30,935 nt of DNA from positions 1-30,935 of IMG/VR virus record IMGVR_UViG_3300029469_000004. One strand, 5' to 3'. A program made the position numbers and the translations under genes. This document shows, one piece after another, positions 14,423 through 27,812 of the stretch. The number at the start of each line of letters is the position of its first letter. Within the stretch, counting starts at the first letter, position 1. Below the pieces are notes generated by a model. It was not told the DNA's origin, searched no databases, and was given only the letters and a program-made list of their open reading frames with translations. This stretch comes from a virus.

Positions 14423-14545
14423 TTTGTTCTCTCCTCTCTGAAAATTTCTCGTGTGCGTGCGCGAAGGTGAACTGTCGTGCCTTTATACCGTTATCCATCA
14501 GCCTGAAATTTTTTCGATTTTTGACCCGGGGGATGCTTTTTTGAC
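14423..14545. other. Candidate cos region between HNH and terS
   Basis: A non-coding 123 bp holds two GC-rich islands in AT-rich DNA: CGTGTGCGTGCGCGAAGG at 14450-14468 and GACCCGGGGGATGC at 14523-14536. Confidence 0.35.
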
Positions 14546-14889: not shown

Positions 14890-15282
14890 TTAATCGCTTC
14901 TACTGACATCTTTCTTTGTGCAATATGTACAAATGTTAAGTCCACGAAGTTTTGCGCAAAGCAATCGTGCCTCTTTGAGCCAGCGGAACACCGTGCGTTC
15001 GTCGGTATAGTTGCTAACTGCAAACTTAGTCACCCTCAAATTTATCTCACCTTTATGCAATGCCGCTGTTGGCGCAACAAAATAAACAGCACTGACAGCT
15101 TGACGGATGTAGTCTTTGTCGCTACTTGTTAAAGCATCAAGCGTGTCTATCACAGCAAGCAGGTCAAGTTGTAATGCTCGGTGCATTGTCTTGTCAGCTA
15201 CAACCTGTGCTTTGCTTGGAAATCCAAGAGAGGCATAAAGTCTAAACTGTGCAATTGTATAATCTCTTGTTGTATCTCTCAT
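14890..15282 (-). CDS. Putative late transcriptional activator (ArpU/RinA-like, sigma region-4-like HTH)
   Basis: 130 aa. The C-terminal ..YTDERTVFRWLKEARLLCAKL.. looks like an HTH. It occupies the canonical position before HNH/terminase and has an ATGA overlap with the upstream gene. Confidence 0.5.
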   Translation of the reverse strand: MRDTTRDYTIAQFRLYASLGFPSKAQVVADKTMHRALQLDLLAVIDTLDALTSSDKDYIRQAVSAVYFVAPTAALHKGEINLRVTKFAVSNYTDERTVFRWLKEARLLCAKLRGLNICTYCTKKDVSRSD

Positions 15283-16016
15283 ATCCTTGCACCTCCGATT
15301 TTCTTGTGTTTATGGCTATTGGCCAAGTAAGTAAAATGAAAAGACGCACCCGTGAAGTCATTTATCCACATTTCGTCTTTGTAAAAATAATATCCTTCGG
15401 GACAAGGCAAAGCCTCACCTCGTTCGAGTTTTCTGTATTCTCGTTTTTTTCCTTCAACAACTTTGACCTCAGGCTTATTGAGATTGCGAGATGTTTTCAA
15501 GCGCTTCTTACCATTGACATCTTTTCGTATGTATTTTGCAAGGTCAGCATAATTGCCGTTTTGGTAGAGCGGAGTAAAATTTATTCCGTTTTTCCATGGC
15601 CAACATTCCATTAATATTTCTCTGACACAATCCTCAATTACGATGTGCAAATGCCAGTTTCTACCGAGTTTGCCACATTCGCAGTACCCGATGTACTTAA
15701 ATTTAATTTGTTTTTTATCTGTCCTGCGTTTGATACGCTTGAAAAAATTCGACACAACCCTCTCAAATTCATCTTCGGTAAATTCACCAAACGGAGCAGA
15801 GAACCTTGCGAACCAGTCGCCCTCAGAGAAGTTGCAAAGGATAAGCCTCTGTGTGTGTTGTTCTCCTCTGATACGGTTTGCTTTGGCTTGCTTTTCGTTT
15901 GTTCGAGATTGATTGATTTGTCGAGCAAGATTTTTTTTATTCCGTCTGCGAAATGATTTATAATATTTGACCTCGAGCAAAGGACCTGATTTAATTTCAC
16001 ACTTGTATGTAAACAT
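15279..16016 (-). CDS. HUH-superfamily rolling-circle Rep-like protein (pC194/pUB110- or microvirus-type motifs)
   Basis: 245 aa. LILCNF (aa 58-63), FKYIGYCECGKLGRNWHLHIVIE (HUH at aa 122-124) and DLAKYIRKDV (Tyr162) are in the canonical order. Confidence 0.55.
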   Translation of the reverse strand: MFTYKCEIKSGPLLEVKYYKSFRRRNKKNLARQINQSRTNEKQAKANRIRGEQHTQRLILCNFSEGDWFARFSAPFGEFTEDEFERVVSNFFKRIKRRTDKKQIKFKYIGYCECGKLGRNWHLHIVIEDCVREILMECWPWKNGINFTPLYQNGNYADLAKYIRKDVNGKKRLKTSRNLNKPEVKVVEGKKREYRKLERGEALPCPEGYYFYKDEMWINDFTGASFHFTYLANSHKHKKIGGARI

Positions 16017-16083
16017 AGTTAAACCTTTATTATATATGTAAATGCTAAAACGGTCACTTAATTAATTCCTTGAGCAGGCTATT

Positions 16084-16108
16084 AAAGGAGTATCTCAACT
16101 CCTTTTTT
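16084..16108 (+). terminator. Plus-strand intrinsic terminator in the gap upstream of the Rep-like gene
   Basis: AAAGGAGT-ATCTCA-ACTCCTTT followed by TTTTTT (the stem shares the first Ts). There is no U-tract in the minus orientation. Confidence 0.6.
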
Positions 16109-16359
16109 GTGACTATTTATTATTCTGTTATCGTATTAAAAAGTCAGATGATATAAATATGCAGTAACCCAATCTGACCACTTGAGTTACTGCTCTGTGC
16201 AACCTTGCCGCTGCAATTGTGTGTTTGATTTTTGGTGCATTCTTTTGTAACAGCTTAATCAAAAGCGGAAGTCGTCGCTTTGATTACTTTTTGAATATAG
16301 GATTAACTTGATTTGAATTTCCTTTAAGATTTTGCACACGGCAAGAATATTGCCTTACC

Positions 16360-19526: not shown

Positions 19527-19757
19527 TCACCTCTTCATTGCGTTGTATATTTCGGGTTCTAAATCAAATGTTCTTCCGATATATCTAACTTCGTCGAAAT
19601 TAAAAAACTGATTATATCCATTTTTATTAACTTTGATAACATTGTTGTTTATTGCATAATCAGAAACATCATCAATATATATGCTTGAACCGTCTTTAAA
19701 TTTTATTGTGATTGTGTTTACATACATCTTTTCGCCTAATGCGGAACATCTGCACAT
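19527..19757 (-). CDS. Small hypothetical protein (start uncertain: ATG at 19757 or 19727)
   Basis: The first ATG lies inside hairpin H1, with GGAG only 1 nt upstream. The internal ATG at 19727 gives MYVNTITIKF... Confidence 0.6.
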   Translation of the reverse strand: MCRCSALGEKMYVNTITIKFKDGSSIYIDDVSDYAINNNVIKVNKNGYNQFFNFDEVRYIGRTFDLEPEIYNAMKR

Positions 19758-19955
19758 GCTCCGCTTTTACAATGTCAGAATTTATTTAAAGAGGAGTAAA
19801 ATGAGGGTTATATAACGAGCTGTGCAGAGCTTGTTATCTATTGGCTTTTTTCGGGCATCTGCACCTGCCCGAATCGGTAATATTACTGAAAGAAAGGTAT
19901 GTATATAATTTATCAAAAGAGGGAATCTATAATCTCGCTGTGCAGAGCGTGATTA
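19741..19955. repeat. Array of four hairpins with invariant TCTGCAC loop motif and non-homologous stems
   Basis: H1 19741-19764 GCGGAACA|TCTGCACA|TGCTCCGC. H2 19812-19837 ATAACGAGC|TGTGCAGA|GCTTGTTAT. H3 19850-19873 TTCGGGCA|TCTGCACC|TGCCCGAA. H4 19930-19955 TAATCTCGC|TGTGCAGA|GCGTGATTA. Confidence 0.85.
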
Positions 19956-19976
19956 ACTTATTAAATTTGCCGCCAC

Positions 19977-20010
19977 AAGAACATTTTGCGGACGTCAGCA
20001 AAATGTTCTT
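19977..20010. other. Perfect 13-bp stem-loop abutting the ParB-like stop codon
   Basis: AAGAACATTTTGC-GGACGTCA-GCAAAATGTTCTT. The plus orientation is followed by TTAATT; the minus orientation has no U-tract. Confidence 0.6.
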
Positions 20011-21339
20011 TTAATTAACTTCGCCTGTTGTAAAAATTGGGTGTGTGCCATCACGGAGTTGAATCTCCTCGTCACTCATCACATAGCCGAGTTTGCAAAG
20101 CAAGGAATAAAATCTGTTTAAGTCAGGGCTGTTTTTTCGGCTGATAGTTTTATCCAAATAATTTACACTGATATAACCGAACGAACTGCAATTCAGCTGA
20201 CACAAAGCGTATGCCGCCGCCATTAACATTCTACCGCTGTCATTGTTCCAATGTTCGCTGATGTAGCTGTCTATGCTTTCATCGTCTTGACTCTCGGTCA
20301 CTTCGCTAAATTTGTATGCCTTGCTACTGGCGCCCATCGCCACTTGGATGACTATAAATTTCACAAGCTCCTGCTTCTTTTTACTGTCGTTAAAATTTGC
20401 ATCAAGCATAAAGCCTATTCTGAGAGCCTCACAGCGTTCGTCTATTTCTTCCGCCTGTTCAACAAGCTCGTCCCATCTCTGCTCTTCAAGCTTTCGCTTT
20501 TCTTCTTCGGGATCATTCTTTTCCTGCTTTTCAAATGCTTCTGCGTAAATGTAGATGTTTGAGCCGTAGTAAGCAAAATAAAAACATCTTTTCCTGCCGT
20601 CCGCAAAATCTTTACCGATCAAATCTTTGAGAGCGAATACTCCCGTATATTCGTAGTTACTTGGAATTTCGTCATATTTCTGTACTTTAGTCATTCCTTG
20701 TTCAAGACAGAGCTTTTCAATTTTTTCTTTCTCTTCCTCTGTTTCCTGTTTTTTTACAGCAGAATACAAAAGATTGTCAAAATTATTTGTACCGATTGAT
20801 TCGAGCAGTTTATTTCTCGTTTCAATGTCCTTAATCTGATTCAATCGGTCATAGTCTGCAAGGGTAGGCTGTCGGATCTGACTTTCCTTGAAAGCTTCTT
20901 CGTCAAGCTCGCAGAGCTTTACTCTTCTTCTGATTTTGCTTTCGGAAAATCCTGTTTTCTCTGCAACCTCTGCGACCGTATCACCGAGGTCAAGCAACAG
21001 CTGACAGCCCTTAGCCTCTTCGTATACGGTCAAGTCTGACCGTTGCATGTTTTCGGTAAGCATTGTCGAAAGCTGTTCTTTCTCACTCATTTCGACAATT
21101 GCACACGGCAGTTCCGTCAAACCTGCCTGCTTTGCGGCCGCAAGCCTGCGATGCCCGATGATAACGGTAAAATCATCCCAGTTATCATTGTTTGGCACTA
21201 CGGTCAAATTCTGCAAGATACCGTTTGCTTTGATAGATTCCGCAAGCTCCGTCACATCGCCTATAACCTTTCGAGGGTTCTGTGGATGTGGGTGCAGTTT
21301 TTCAACCTGTATCATTTGTAATTTAGATTTCTTGTTCAT
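20011..21339 (-). CDS. ParB/Srx-like N-terminal domain protein with HTH and long unknown C-terminal region
   Basis: KLHPHPQNPRK, GILQNLTVVP, IIGHRRLAAAKQAG, and the HTH VAEKTGFSESKIRRRV. I prefer the ATG at 21339, 9 nt after AAGGAG, to the GTG at 21363 in the track. Confidence 0.8.
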   Translation of the reverse strand: MNKKSKLQMIQVEKLHPHPQNPRKVIGDVTELAESIKANGILQNLTVVPNNDNWDDFTVIIGHRRLAAAKQAGLTELPCAIVEMSEKEQLSTMLTENMQRSDLTVYEEAKGCQLLLDLGDTVAEVAEKTGFSESKIRRRVKLCELDEEAFKESQIRQPTLADYDRLNQIKDIETRNKLLESIGTNNFDNLLYSAVKKQETEEEKEKIEKLCLEQGMTKVQKYDEIPSNYEYTGVFALKDLIGKDFADGRKRCFYFAYYGSNIYIYAEAFEKQEKNDPEEEKRKLEEQRWDELVEQAEEIDERCEALRIGFMLDANFNDSKKKQELVKFIVIQVAMGASSKAYKFSEVTESQDDESIDSYISEHWNNDSGRMLMAAAYALCQLNCSSFGYISVNYLDKTISRKNSPDLNRFYSLLCKLGYVMSDEEIQLRDGTHPIFTTGEVN

Positions 21340-21387: not shown

Positions 21388-21475
21388 AAACTGTATTTAT
21401 ACATTGCAGATAGCCTTGTGTTATTTGCTGACCGTTGATTGCTTGCACTACAATCAACGGTCTTTTTCTTTTGTG
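21388..21475 (+). ncRNA. Candidate ~85-nt cis-antisense sRNA (promoter plus terminator, no ORF)
   Basis: It is bounded by the promoter above and the terminator at 21430-21475. It is antisense to the 3' end of gene 21454..21669 and to the ParB-like 5' leader. Confidence 0.3.
21430..21475 (+). terminator. Plus-strand intrinsic terminator
   Basis: Perfect 12-bp stem GACCGTTGATTG / CAATCAACGGTC, loop CTTGCACTA, then TTTTTCTTTTGTG. The minus orientation lacks a U-tract. Confidence 0.65.
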
Positions 21476-21733: not shown

Positions 21734-21982
21734 TTACACCTCTTTGCTGATAAAATCTGTAGCACGATACAATGTCACGCAATCGCCGTCAAGGTCATCA
21801 TCGTAATACTGCGCTGTCTCATCGCTCATTGCTTTGACAATCACAGCGTAGTAATCTTCTTCCCATTCTTTCGCCGCTTCAATTATTTCATCAAGTGAAA
21901 ACTTGCCTTTGGCTTTTCTGATTTTCAGACACCAGCGCCCCGAAGCATCGGATCCGCTTTCAATTGTTGTCCCTTTTTTCAT
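21734..21982 (-). CDS. Hypothetical acidic protein
   Basis: Trimmed to the ATG at 21982 (MKKGTTIES..), which gives an ATGA overlap with the upstream stop. Confidence 0.65.
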   Translation of the reverse strand: MKKGTTIESGSDASGRWCLKIRKAKGKFSLDEIIEAAKEWEEDYYAVIVKAMSDETAQYYDDDLDGDCVTLYRATDFISKEV

Positions 21983-22239
21983 TTGCCGACACCCACACAT
22001 TCAAAACCATATGTTTCTGCCTTTGCTGATTCATACATTGAAAGTTTTTCGCAGAGTTTAGTGTTCTCGTTCTTATAACCTCCTAATGCATATCGAGCGT
22101 TTGTGTAATTTTCTTCGGTTTGGGATTTATCAAGGCGAGCTTTTTTTAACTCATTTTTGAGATTTTTGTTTTCTTCTCTTAACTCCTTAACATCTTTGAG
22201 CAGTTTTCTGCGTGTCGGGTAGTTTCTTAAATGCCACAT
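21979..22239 (-). CDS. Hypothetical coiled-coil protein
   Basis: 86 aa, KELREENKNLKNELKKARLDK. Confidence 0.65.
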   Translation of the reverse strand: MWHLRNYPTRRKLLKDVKELREENKNLKNELKKARLDKSQTEENYTNARYALGGYKNENTKLCEKLSMYESAKAETYGFECVGVGK

Positions 22240-24589: not shown

Positions 24590-24618
24590 ATAATATACCT
24601 TTTGCGGTGGATTGTCAA
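24590..24618 (-). promoter_or_regulatory. Candidate early (Cro-side) promoter
   Basis: The minus strand reads TTGACA (24618-13), 17-nt spacer, TATTAT (24595-90). Confidence 0.55.
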
Positions 24619-24634
24619 CACTTTTTTAAAAATA

Positions 24635-24654
24635 ATTTACTAAAAAAGGTAGAT
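24635..24654. promoter_or_regulatory. Operator O2: ATTTAC-N8-GTAGAT
   Basis: Same architecture as O1 with 11 of 12 half-site matches. Confidence 0.45.
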
Positions 24655-24660
24655 TTGTTA

Positions 24661-24689
24661 TTGACATCTACAAAATTTTGTAATATACT
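24661..24689 (+). promoter_or_regulatory. Candidate repressor (cI-side) promoter
   Basis: TTGACA (24661-66), 17-nt spacer, TATACT (24684-89). Confidence 0.65.
24666..24685. promoter_or_regulatory. Operator O3: ATCTAC-N8-GTAATA, containing the perfect palindrome TACAAAATTTTGTA
   Basis: It overlaps the -35/spacer/-10 of the cI-side promoter. The 14-bp palindrome is at 24669-24682. Confidence 0.5.
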
Positions 24690-26573: not shown

Positions 26574-27812
26574 ATGATGAAAAAATGTATAAACCGACGG
26601 TGTAACCGAGAACTACAGGACGATTTTGTATTCTGTCCGTATTGCGGTAAAAATCAATCATCTGACAAGCCAAAAAACAGACGACGGACAAAAGGCACGG
26701 GCAGTATTTACATACGCAAAGACAGCAAATCAAAACCGTATGCCGCTGCAAGCTCTGTCACAGGGAAACAAGTTTATTTGGGGACTTTTGCCACAAAGCG
26801 AGAGGCAGAAAATGCGCTCAAAGATTATGAGTACAATCCCGTCAACGGCTTTAATATGACACTTGAGCAATTACACGATAAATGGGTAAAAACTAAAGCA
26901 TATAAAAAACTTGGCAACAGCGTGAAAAGCAACTATGCAAGTGCATACATCAAGTTGAAACCTCTGTACAAGCGTAAATTCAGGGACTTGCGCACCTCGG
27001 ATTATCAATTCATCATAGATTATTACGACAACCCACATCACGAGGTCGGCGCAGAAGGCAAATTAAAATATCTCTTACCTAATGGTAAAGGCACTTATAA
27101 AGTCACTGATACGCCTAAAATCTGTCAGGGATTAGGTTACTCAGCTCTACATAAGATTAAATGTTTTGTCACCAGTCTTTACAATTTTGCGATGCAAGAG
27201 GATATTGTAAATAAAGACTACGGAACATTTATAGAGCTTCCGGAATCCGAAGAAGTAAACGCTACACGCTTTACTGATGTACAGCTTGAGCTTATCAGAC
27301 AAAACATAGGCAAAGTGCCTTATGCTGATTATGTTTATATAATGTGCTATCTCAATTTCAGAGTGACCGAGTTTCTTTCGCTCACTACCGAGCAGTACCA
27401 TATGAGTGAACAGGGCATACCTTACTTTATCGCAGGCATAAAGTCAGATGCCGGCAAAAATCGTGTTGTACCTATCCACCCTAAAATTTTAAAATTGGTT
27501 GAGAACTGTATAAATCACAAAGGTGAAACAATCTTCTGTCGAACACACGAAGGTTCAGAGTTTGGCAAAGCGATGAACAAGGATTATTTCTTGAAATATT
27601 GTTTCAGACCGGCGATGCAAGCGCTGGGGTTAGGTGATGAGTTTACTCCGCATTCTTGTCGCAGAACCTTTTCAACTCGTATGTCAGCGGCAGGTGCGAG
27701 GGAAGAGGACATCATTGCTCTCATGGGGCATACAGATTACAAGGTCGATATTGACCACTACATCATTCAAGAGGTTGACACTCTTTACAATGCAATCAAA
27801 TTGCTGGCATAA
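26574..27812 (+). CDS. int: Tyrosine integrase with N-terminal zinc ribbon and AP2-like arm-binding domain
   Basis: CINRRC..CPYCG; GTGSIYIRKDSKSKPYAA..GKQVYLGTFATKREAENAL; C-terminal HSCRRTFSTRM...LMGHTDYKVDIDHY (R..H-R-Y catalytic pattern). Confidence 0.9.
   Translation: MMKKCINRRCNRELQDDFVFCPYCGKNQSSDKPKNRRRTKGTGSIYIRKDSKSKPYAAASSVTGKQVYLGTFATKREAENALKDYEYNPVNGFNMTLEQLHDKWVKTKAYKKLGNSVKSNYASAYIKLKPLYKRKFRDLRTSDYQFIIDYYDNPHHEVGAEGKLKYLLPNGKGTYKVTDTPKICQGLGYSALHKIKCFVTSLYNFAMQEDIVNKDYGTFIELPESEEVNATRFTDVQLELIRQNIGKVPYADYVYIMCYLNFRVTEFLSLTTEQYHMSEQGIPYFIAGIKSDAGKNRVVPIHPKILKLVENCINHKGETIFCRTHEGSEFGKAMNKDYFLKYCFRPAMQALGLGDEFTPHSCRRTFSTRMSAAGAREEDIIALMGHTDYKVDIDHYIIQEVDTLYNAIKLLA

Follow-up and report, generated by a model that had tools for sequence, protein, structure and literature searches.

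A conserved non-coding hairpin array behind a ParB-like gene in a common family of gut prophages

The put RNA of phage HK022 consists of two stem-loops and acts directly on RNA polymerase, and in phage lambda boxA, boxB and rut segments alternate within the nutR-tR1 region. A conserved loop on a stem of free sequence is the hallmark of HUH nick sites, as in geminivirus and CRESS origins and in pMV158. Single-strand origins of the ssoA type are imperfect hairpins of ~130-160 nucleotides (nt) with an RSB and the CS-6 loop motif TAGCGT/A, and the known parS, sopC and P1 parS sites adjoin parB. Here we analyse a viral DNA stretch of 30,935 nt (IMG/VR record IMGVR_UViG_3300029469_000004, positions 1 to 30,935; hereafter the window), in which four hairpins that present one loop hexamer on alternating strands lie in the gap downstream of a ParB-like gene. 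This hairpin array is a real, strongly conserved non-coding module of a very common gut prophage family. Judged from its sequence, it is probably a structured cis element with conserved loops that matches no described element: literature searches and Rfam yielded no published description of such an array, and we know of no described phage element that resembles it.

Several known systems nevertheless share some of its features. Like the nut sites of lambda and the boxB-boxA-boxC leaders of rrn operons, the array would be a non-coding signal in an early operon, in which loops rather than stems are conserved beside a boxA-like core, the flanks are G-poor and more than one copy per genome is possible. 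Unlike them, it has paired hairpins with two complementary loops of 6-8 nt that are not GNRA-like pentaloops, lies far from the promoter, matches boxA at 9 of 11 positions (a match missing from one spacer type) and comes with no N-like protein that we could find. With HK022 put it would share units of two stem-loops, formed as the early transcript emerges, action in cis, a structure that is kept while the sequence drifts and, in principle, independence from a dedicated protein; however, the stems of put are one base apart and the hairpins of the array 45-57 nt, and we found no similarity between them in sequence or Rfam. In the kissing loops of ColE1 RNA I/RNA II, CopA/CopT and the HIV-1 dimerization initiation site, as in the array, apical loops of 6-8 nt are fully complementary and the stems are free, and the corresponding loop of HIV-1 subtype A (GUGCAC) resembles the array hexamer. 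The partners in the array, by contrast, lie in one molecule, are not self-complementary and involve no antisense transcript or dimerization, and their pairing is predicted.

Among DNA elements, HUH Rep origin hairpins also carry an invariant loop motif on differing but complementary stems, and the genome encodes an HUH Rep. The array differs from them in its two to four copies, which alternate between strands and lie kilobases from rep without iterons, in a loop unlike that of the hairpin next to rep, and in a core that is unchanged between Reps of 46% identity. Its hairpins, at 24-28 nt, are also much shorter than ssoA and contain no CS-6 motif. P1 parS, where box A and box B surround a bend induced by IHF, likewise lies directly downstream of parB and has inverted asymmetric hexamers flanking an AT-rich stretch of ~70-85 bp; in the array, however, palindromes carry the hexamers at their tips, repeats of the box A type are absent, the spacing is unphased and the element persists without ParB. 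Unlike REP and BIME palindromes, it is confined to one locus (rarely two) and its stems are unrelated. TIGR arrays with tasParB resemble it in their ParB-like neighbour, in short units composed of a variable segment, a conserved 'loop' of ~8 nt and another variable segment, and in their occurrence in phages of gut Clostridia (PMC12045711). They consist, however, of alternating edge and loop repeats with non-complementary spacers of 9 nt and a period of ~36 nt (PMC12045711), whereas the array has two to four units without edge repeats or a 36-nt period (the unit spacing being 64-87 nt), and its variable segments are complementary to each other and form a stem rather than two guides. No match to a Nop-domain Tas protein was found with Pfam at E <= 0.01 in 30 window proteins (those of 14.9-26.4 kb plus two from 28.3-30.9 kb), a search that a divergent Tas could escape. 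With the defining features of a TIGR-Tas array absent, we rejected that assignment.

Structure and conservation of the array

All lytic genes of the window are on the minus strand and run leftward, making the minus strand the sense strand of the array. Along this strand the hairpins follow in the order H4, H3, H2, H1; the last two lines describe stem classes from relatives.

20011-21339, minus strand: ParB-like gene; ParB_N and HTH_ParB domains, then ~250 amino acids of unknown fold; TIGR00180 at 94.7 bits against a cutoff of 58.45
19930-19955, minus strand: H4 (class D), the first hairpin after the ParB stop codon; sense TAATCACGC / TCTGCACA / GCGAGATTA, core CTGCAC at 19940-19945
19874-19929, minus strand: spacer 1, AT-rich; boxA-like 16-mer at 19907-19922, sense CCTCTTTTGATAAATT
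19850-19873, minus strand: H3 (class C); sense TTCGGGCAG / GTGCAGA / TGCCCGAA, core at 19859-19864
19838-19849, minus strand: linker between the hairpin pairs, 12 nt
19812-19837, minus strand: H2 (class B); sense ATAACAAGC / TCTGCACA / GCTCGTTAT, core at 19822-19827
19765-19811, minus strand: spacer 2, nearly invariant in four-hairpin arrays; boxA-like 16-mer at 19779-19794, sense CCTCTTTAAATAAATT, core CTCTTTAA
19741-19764, minus strand: H1 (class A), the last hairpin; sense GCGGAGCAT / GTGCAG / ATGTTCCGC, core at 19750-19755
Relatives: class D', an allele of D; TAATCACACAA / CTGCAC / TTGTGAGATTA, with GC/GC replaced by ACA/TGT as compensatory stem changes
Relatives: class E, which takes the place of C in two-hairpin arrays; sense ATCTCAGACAG / GTGCAGA / TGTCTGAGAT

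Across relatives, the loop and the pairing are kept and the stem sequence is not. We compared 51 distinct hairpins from six unrelated stem classes (A, B, C, D, D' and E), chosen for at least 7 of 9 paired positions. Stem positions were paired in 90% of cases, a figure inflated by that choice, compared with 28-36% when the partner columns were slid against each other. The hexamer CTGCAC was invariant in all 51 of these pairing-selected hairpins, and nearly every CTGCAC in the array gaps of relatives sits within a hairpin. All nine stem pairs show changes on both sides, including a compensatory C-G to T-A change of H2 in one relative (L015). The D and D' alleles each occur with three or four spacer types, which begin ~15 nt away, indicating frequent recombination in the region. 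Even so, the two arms of D and D', which are 6 nt apart, were concordant in 64 cases and hybrid in only 1 (~66 D/D' arrays). Hybrid hairpins with their junction in the loop core (L004/L007, L015, L022 and L032/L111/L144) were too rare for the core to be a recombination hotspot, a possibility we rejected. That the arms remain matched despite recombination nearby points to purifying selection on their complementarity, with the caveat that quasi-palindrome correction can also generate matched changes in DNA.

The array is equally consistent in its location. A search with the ParB-like protein returned 128 related viral stretches, and in all 80 that were fetched (65-99% identity) an array directly follows the ParB stop codon. 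In 80 further loci found through Rep, with 6 kb fetched upstream of rep, the array follows ParB wherever ParB lies within the fetched segment, except in L160 (where ParB is cut off after residue 185), and no such hairpins occur outside the array. A pattern search for the array itself yielded 75 stretches, whose matches lie beside ParB or at a fragment edge, apart from genomes that have lost ParB and five chance-looking cases (one of them checked). Deduplication left 75 distinct arrays, of which 40 have four hairpins in the order +-+-, 31 have two in the order +- and 4 are odd; virtually every relative has class D or D'. Each genome has its hairpins at a single locus, except for rare recombinants with two loci, in which second copies precede other cargo genes (L218, and L183 and L230, both from one contig); in these double arrays, each copy stands behind a remnant of the ParB 3' end and before a different gene. 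The array is among the most conserved stretches of these genomes. With more than 6,000 ParB homologues at E <= 1e-5 among 8,000 candidates scored, the prophage lineage is extremely common in human-gut metagenomes.

The first-pass annotation, made from the window alone, had described four stem-loops with an alternating loop orientation, and its coordinates and sequences are all borne out, the core lying on the plus strand at 19750 and 19859 and on the minus strand at 19822 and 19940. It suggested that related phages be searched for the hairpins and for compensatory stem changes around a fixed loop; ~150 related viral contigs carry the array directly after the ParB-like gene, with such changes across related arrays. 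Its view that selection acts on a folded strand and not on a duplex operator likewise holds, as six unrelated stem classes keep their pairing and the arms stay concordant despite recombination. Other details needed revision. The 7-mer TCTGCAC, which it took as invariant, reduces to the hexamer, because the base before CTGCAC is A in one H4 allele, and a fifth stem class has G there. The window contains 11 copies of TCTGCAC (3.35 expected; none of 100 shuffles reached 11), and only the four copies in the array gap have complementary flanks. The remaining seven are scattered single copies, as had been noted, at positions now corrected to 4951, 8680 and 22520 for those named. A mismatch 5 bp from the stem base, thought to be kept in H1, H2 and H4, is conserved in H4 only, as A.A in nearly all relatives; the mismatch in H2 is particular to the window's lineage, most relatives having a perfect stem, and that in H1 varies in position and type. 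Class A is the least constrained of the four, with core point mutations in 2 distinct arrays (for example, L009 and L025). Finally, the gap was correctly placed 3' of the ParB-like gene but is ~283 bp rather than 253 bp long, because the downstream open reading frame (ORF) of 66 amino acids most likely starts at 19727 (ATG TAT GTA, preceded by a ribosome-binding site, AGGCGAAAAG) and not at 19757. H1 is thus wholly non-coding, ending 13 nt from the start codon with the ribosome-binding site in between.

On the sense strand, the array is built of units composed of a hairpin with the loop (U)CUGCAC(A), a spacer of 45-57 nt and a hairpin with the loop (G)GUGCAG(A). The window contains two such units, diverged duplicates that share TATATA..CTCATTTTA, a 16-mer and TTCTGA. 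As the hexamer alternates between strands, neighbouring loops are complementary, and they pair with each other both in a consensus sense-strand fold of 26 arrays and in a single-sequence DNA fold. Predicted folding energies of the sense-strand RNA are -7.7 (H4), -13.8 (H3), -7.2 (H2) and -15.4 (H1) kcal/mol, and the whole gap folds better than shuffled sequences (z = -2.9 for sense RNA, z = -4.2 for plus-strand DNA). Loop flips are common at a nearby hairpin (21430-21462), yet the +-+- or +- order of the array is otherwise fixed, suggesting that its orientation is selected. In L021/L024, the whole class A hairpin, internal mismatch included, is an exact reverse complement, resulting in a +-++ array that amounts to a natural orientation mutant.

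The spacers are asymmetric between strands. On the sense strand they are pyrimidine-rich and G-poor, opposite to the purine-rich trend of coding sequence, with pyrimidine fractions of 0.625 in spacer 1 (99.6th percentile of the lytic region) and 0.596 in spacer 2 (98th percentile). Spacer 2 is almost invariant and lies above the ParB coding sequence in the conservation profile; spacer 1 has three or four homologous types among relatives. Within the 16-mer that the two spacers share is CTCTTT(T)[AG]A, a motif with six copies on the sense strand of the window, two of them within the array. The boxA consensus of gamma-proteobacteria is GYTCTTTAANA (PMC5725501). The sense sequence CCTCTTTAAAT at 19784-19794 agrees with it at 9 of 11 positions, including an exact 8-nt core (YTCTTTAA), a comparison with a gamma-proteobacterial consensus that may not be that of the host. 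The second boxA-like copy has one extra T, and the core is also present in the type ii spacer. In relatives, the cores lie 64-87 nt apart within unit 1, 36-37 nt apart over the linker (C to B) and 68-72 nt apart within unit 2. The distances inside a unit show no helical periodicity, which weighs against a phased protein complex on duplex DNA. In relatives the array starts 2-60 nt past the ParB stop codon and ends 3-17 nt ahead of the next ribosome-binding site.

The array is also independent of the ParB-like protein. ParB has been lost through four different deletions, all of which end just before hairpin D and leave the array whole. Almost the entire gene is gone in L198, 25 N-terminal codons are left in L202, and an internal deletion in L183 leaves a short piece of the N terminus (TVIIGHRRL) fused to the final few codons. 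In L166, an upstream gene of 88 amino acids is fused in frame to the last 30 ParB codons through a shared ATGAGTGA(T/C)GAA microhomology (..AMSDE; counterparts in the window, 21734-22000 and 20011-20110). These four losses suggest that the array is retained for itself or for the downstream genes and not as a ParB site. The protein is a mosaic, in which residues 1-200 (ParB_N and the helix-turn-helix) and the last 40 are nearly invariant and residues ~200-400 exist in at least two divergent versions; the last 30-40 codons are invariant and travel with the array. The ParB-like protein thus appears dispensable, and the invariant 3' end of its gene appears to act as a recombination boundary. An AlphaFold2 model built from near-identical homologues gave no usable fold (mean pLDDT 40). 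ParB homologues at 35-40% identity abut the next gene without an array in two metagenome-assembled genomes, in Faecalibacterium phage Roos and in one faecal contig (three loci from a genome scan; phage Roos and one unannotated contig from a phage database).

The genes 3' of the array vary, so that the array marks a mosaic junction, with the ParB-like gene on one side and cargo mostly for DNA modification on the other. Among these genes are N6-adenine methyltransferases of three kinds (relatives of type I HsdM, with a specificity domain in one), a DndC/BrxP-like PAPS reductase (L048), YopX, an XRE-type helix-turn-helix regulator and the 66-amino-acid ORF of the window. Relatives with DNA-modification enzymes after ParB and the array include L009, L010, L002 and L048. 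In the distant relative L162 (7493-11154), two large ORFs that are methyltransferase-like by sequence alone follow the ParB-like gene.

Possible functions of the array

We favour, with a probability of about 0.35, the reading that the array is a cis-acting RNA module of the early operon, either a nut/put-like elongation control or a processing and stabilising site, whose loops could kiss. It would act as folded RNA in an early polycistronic transcript that runs right to left on the minus strand from a promoter near 24590. The two loops of a unit, complementary over 6-8 nt, would kiss and close the unstructured spacer into a compact domain, in which only stem pairing and the loop hexamer matter, so that stem sequences would be free to drift. 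The target of such a domain may be RNA polymerase during transcription or else the transcript. It could be a nut- or put-like elongation or antitermination signal, with the boxA-like core recruiting host Nus factors, or an intercistronic site of processing and stabilisation; in either case it would set the expression of downstream genes, namely the variable DNA-modification cargo and possibly later genes. We infer this role for RNA from selection on folding, from an orientation that does not change with respect to transcription and from conserved, strand-asymmetric spacers with a boxA-like core, and also because the array spans from a stop codon to the next ribosome-binding site, is unphased and is retained without ParB. 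If a nut- or put-like signal, the array would be among the first defined in phages of gut Clostridia, and would offer a handle on the timing of gene expression and on the expression of anti-restriction cargo. Its natural variants (six stem classes, flipped and hybrid hairpins, and genomes without ParB) constitute a ready-made mutant series.

A number of observations weigh against this RNA reading. RNA under selection usually favours G.U over A.C, and mismatches counted by hand on the sense strand (~9 G.U and ~12 A.C) show no significant wobble bias. Bases next to the loop hexamer show no covariation between partner hairpins, each of the four D/D' by E/E' combinations being present, which suggests that there is no selection for kissing outside the hexamer; the hexamer, for its part, never covaries and may therefore be constrained by more than mutual complementarity. 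One lineage (L021/L024) tolerates a flipped last hairpin, and a single hexamer on both strands would suit a reader of DNA equally well. The two boxA-like copies are paralogous and amount to roughly one suggestive observation, and the type iii spacer of two-hairpin arrays contains no exact boxA core. Rfam 15 at a relaxed threshold returned best matches of 20 bits, compared with gathering scores of 40-67. The small early proteins include no evident arginine-rich N-like protein, and the sense strand downstream has weak terminator-like sites only, with no strong intrinsic terminator.

The first-pass annotation had offered three functions for the hairpins, of which antitermination RNA sites resembling boxB comes nearest to the reading we favour. 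The orientation, the strand-asymmetric spacers and the repeated boxA-like core speak for antitermination; against it stand the two different RNA loops and our finding neither an N-like protein nor a strong downstream terminator. Classical boxB-type sites for a phage N-like antiterminator, in which a protein and not loop-loop pairing reads the loops, would indeed fit the orientation, the boxA-like core beside the hairpins and the G-poor, rut-like spacers, an interleaving reminiscent of lambda nutR-tR1. With CUGCAC and GUGCAG in one RNA, however, one peptide would read only half of the hairpins; the loops, at 6-8 nt, differ from GNRA-like pentaloops, the array is not just downstream of the early promoter but ~4.6 kb away, and no small arginine-rich protein stands out, making this version improbable. 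A role in single-stranded DNA deserves more weight, although we still consider it unlikely: the hairpins might fold during Rep-driven rolling-circle replication, as nick or termination sites or as sso/ssi-like sites of lagging-strand initiation on either strand. The window encodes an HUH Rep as its sole recognisable replication protein, and a conserved loop motif on a free stem has the anatomy of an HUH nick site. The missing G.U bias suits DNA, hybrid hairpins with a junction in the loop core exist, both strands read 5' to 3' give an identical hairpin order, and the survival of the array after ParB loss is expected of an essential origin-type site. Yet the Rep origin proposed in the first-pass annotation is disfavoured by a better-placed covarying hairpin, 145-180 nt upstream of rep in both Rep lineages, with a different loop (GGTCAG/CTGACC), and by the array itself, which has sites on both strands and is separated from rep by 3.6 kb to more than 6 kb of sequence that includes variable genes. 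The core is the same with Reps only 46% identical, arguing against co-evolution with the Rep lineage, and hairpins of this kind are absent from distant phages that have a Rep of this family. The ssoA CS-6 motif TAGCG[TA] is not found on either strand of 19728-20010, H2 and H4 are weak even as RNA (-7 kcal/mol) and would be weaker still as DNA, the hybrids, at 1 of 75 for D/D', are too rare to mark a strong recombination hotspot, and we know of no precedent for two to four alternating sites as a double-strand origin.

That the array is a cis site of the adjacent orphan ParB-like protein (of centromere, loading or operator type, possibly read in folded form) now seems doubtful, and this part of the first-pass annotation is weakened. 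The array lies within ~60 nt of the ParB stop codon in all 80 loci with ParB, the N-terminal and helix-turn-helix part of ParB is nearly invariant in the lineage, and the arrangement of inverted hexamers, ~70-85 bp apart with AT-rich sequence between, is reminiscent of box B in P1 parS; in TIGR-Tas loci, too, ParB-like genes accompany arrays of small structured RNAs (PMC12045711). Four independent ParB-loss genomes (L166, L183, L198 and L202) nevertheless keep the array intact, no array follows ParB homologues at 35-40% identity, and the arms of the six classes share no sequence, leaving a helix-turn-helix dimer without a common half-site. Canonical parS was not found even with 3 mismatches, there is no ParA among the proteins scanned, the core spacing is unphased, and a phage that integrates (integrase at 26574-27812) does not need partition. 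Little probability also attaches to a composite of these ideas, in which the orphan ParB-CTPase-fold protein or the HUH Rep would read the array in folded single-stranded form on both strands, as a hairpin-loop 'parS' or a strand-symmetric origin for which nothing but the fold and the apical CTGCAC would count. Either reader would imply a new kind of origin or a new mode of target recognition by a ParB-fold protein, and a strand-symmetric origin would be a new architecture for double-stranded DNA phages that replicate by rolling circle. It seems similarly improbable that CTGCAC/GTGCAG is a feature of duplex DNA, be it a target of methylation, restriction or nicking whose arms are a by-product of mutagenesis (break-induced or by template switching), or an epigenetic switch or recombination boundary for cargo. 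GTGCAG is the BsgI recognition site. The gene after the array is often an N6-adenine methyltransferase, with a type I-like specificity domain and a weak Eco57I-type match, and in L048 a PAPS reductase, and methyltransferase-like ORFs (by sequence alone) directly follow distant ParB homologues. The array stands exactly at the mosaic junction, inversions of loops and of a whole hairpin show that the palindromes rearrange, and quasi-palindrome correction can mimic compensatory change. The window phage, however, has the array and no methyltransferase among the ORFs scanned, one core precedes three different methyltransferases, and CTGCAC is neither avoided nor enriched outside the array (12 copies, compared with ~12.3 expected for the whole window). 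A duplex target would also leave the strand-asymmetric conserved spacers and the fixed orientation unexplained, and arms that match across recombinant backgrounds look like selection rather than mutation alone. Least probable of all is a functionless array, a selfish or hitch-hiking cluster of quasi-palindromes between two selected modules. Hairpin A is decaying (mismatches, core mutations and a flip) and distant relatives manage without the array; against this stand the invariant hexamer in 51 hairpins (selected for pairing), the matched arms in 75 distinct arrays, the conservation of spacer 2 above the ParB coding sequence and the sparing of the array by all four ParB deletions.

Neighbouring genes and other features

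The window looks like a small temperate siphophage or prophage. Its lysogeny genes, the integrase and a regulator of the M78-peptidase type, are on the plus strand. The lytic genes begin with small early genes, YopX, the ParB-like gene, the array gap, the 66-amino-acid ORF and an ORF of 189 amino acids, and continue with a VRR-NUC-like nuclease, an HNH protein, unknown genes, the HUH Rep, a second HNH protein, TerS, TerL and structural genes. Features outside the array that bear on its surroundings are as follows.

26574-27812, plus strand: integrase, a lysogeny gene
21430-21462: perfect 12-bp hairpin just upstream of the ParB-like gene
19977-20010, no strand assigned: near-perfect palindrome of 34 nt, optional, abutting the ParB stop codon (overlap region to 20018)
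19527-19727, minus strand: first gene 3' of the array, 66 amino acids, function not assigned
16161-16193, in the gap 16017-16359: rep-proximal hairpin of 12-13 bp, 145-180 nt upstream of rep; 9-nt loop, sense GTGGTCAGA, core GGTCAG

The Rep (15279-16016) has HUH (HLHIV) and YxxK (YIRK) motifs and matches PF23343 and phrog_3584; a comparison with solved structures gave no match. Relatives have two Rep lineages, ~95% and ~46% identical to that of the window, and both co-occur with CTGCAC arrays. In the rep region of relatives L045-L080, the two lineages have the same upstream non-coding region. Two Rep lineages behind one conserved leader indicate that the gene was swapped and the leader kept. 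In this leader, the hairpin at 16161-16193 has a conserved loop core and multiple compensatory stem changes across ~90 relatives of both lineages, with covarying stems such as GCAGTAACTCAA/TTGGGTTACTGC, GCAGTAGTTCG/CGGACTACTGC and AAGCAGTAGCTCA/TGGGCTACTGCTT. Its pattern of conservation makes it a strong candidate for the Rep nick site or for a leader element of the late operon. Because it occupies the canonical position of a Rep origin, with a loop unlike CTGCAC, we rank a Rep origin at H1-H4 below the RNA reading. The rep-proximal loop TCTGACCAC was considered as kin of TCTGCAC and rejected, the agreement of the cores CTGACC and CTGCAC at 4 of 6 positions being judged chance. A small hairpin at 16084-16105 and a promoter-like site, GTGACC-17-TATAAT, follow the 16161-16193 hairpin.

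Neither a sigma-70 promoter nor a terminator was found inside the window's array on either strand, and none of its four hairpins qualifies as an intrinsic terminator (a G+C-rich hairpin followed by a U tract), again on either strand. In two-hairpin relatives (for example, L055), the class E hairpin with its T tract has a terminator-like score on the sense strand. TATAAT-like boxes read manually at the bases of H2 and H4 were dropped, as they lack a usable -35 element. An antisense mini-ORF (ATG-NNN-NNN-ATA-TAA) and a 57-codon ORF on the plus strand were rejected as not conserved, most relatives having ACG for ATG and frame-breaking indels. Two single short matches were taken as coincidence: the omega-protein heptad AATCACA in an H4 arm, and the type iii spacer sequence ACTTTTCTGAATATT as a CodY box. 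A wider YTGCAC theme, including the hairpin upstream of parB and motifs near rep, was also abandoned, with 6 gap copies outside the array (~4 expected) and a loop that varies and flips.

At each end of parB there is a terminator-like hairpin directed against antisense transcription, and no antisense promoter was found. The palindrome at 19977-20010, which only some relatives have, precedes a T tract (TTTTAATT) on the plus strand and is terminator-like on that (antisense) strand only. The hairpin at 21430-21462 with its T run resembles an intrinsic terminator, also on the plus (antisense) strand only, and among related phages its 9-nt loop occurs in both orientations at high frequency (CTTGCACTA or TAGTGCAAG), the result of a small loop inversion.

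Between the lytic and lysogeny genes, divergent promoter-like sites stand back to back at 24590-24689, each matching at 11 of 12 positions (minus strand, TTGACA-17-TATTAT; plus strand, TTGACA-17-TATACT); this pair is probably the genetic switch. A gap of 123 bp (14423-14545) separates the terminase-associated HNH gene from terS, the position where the cos site usually lies in HNH-dependent cos phages.

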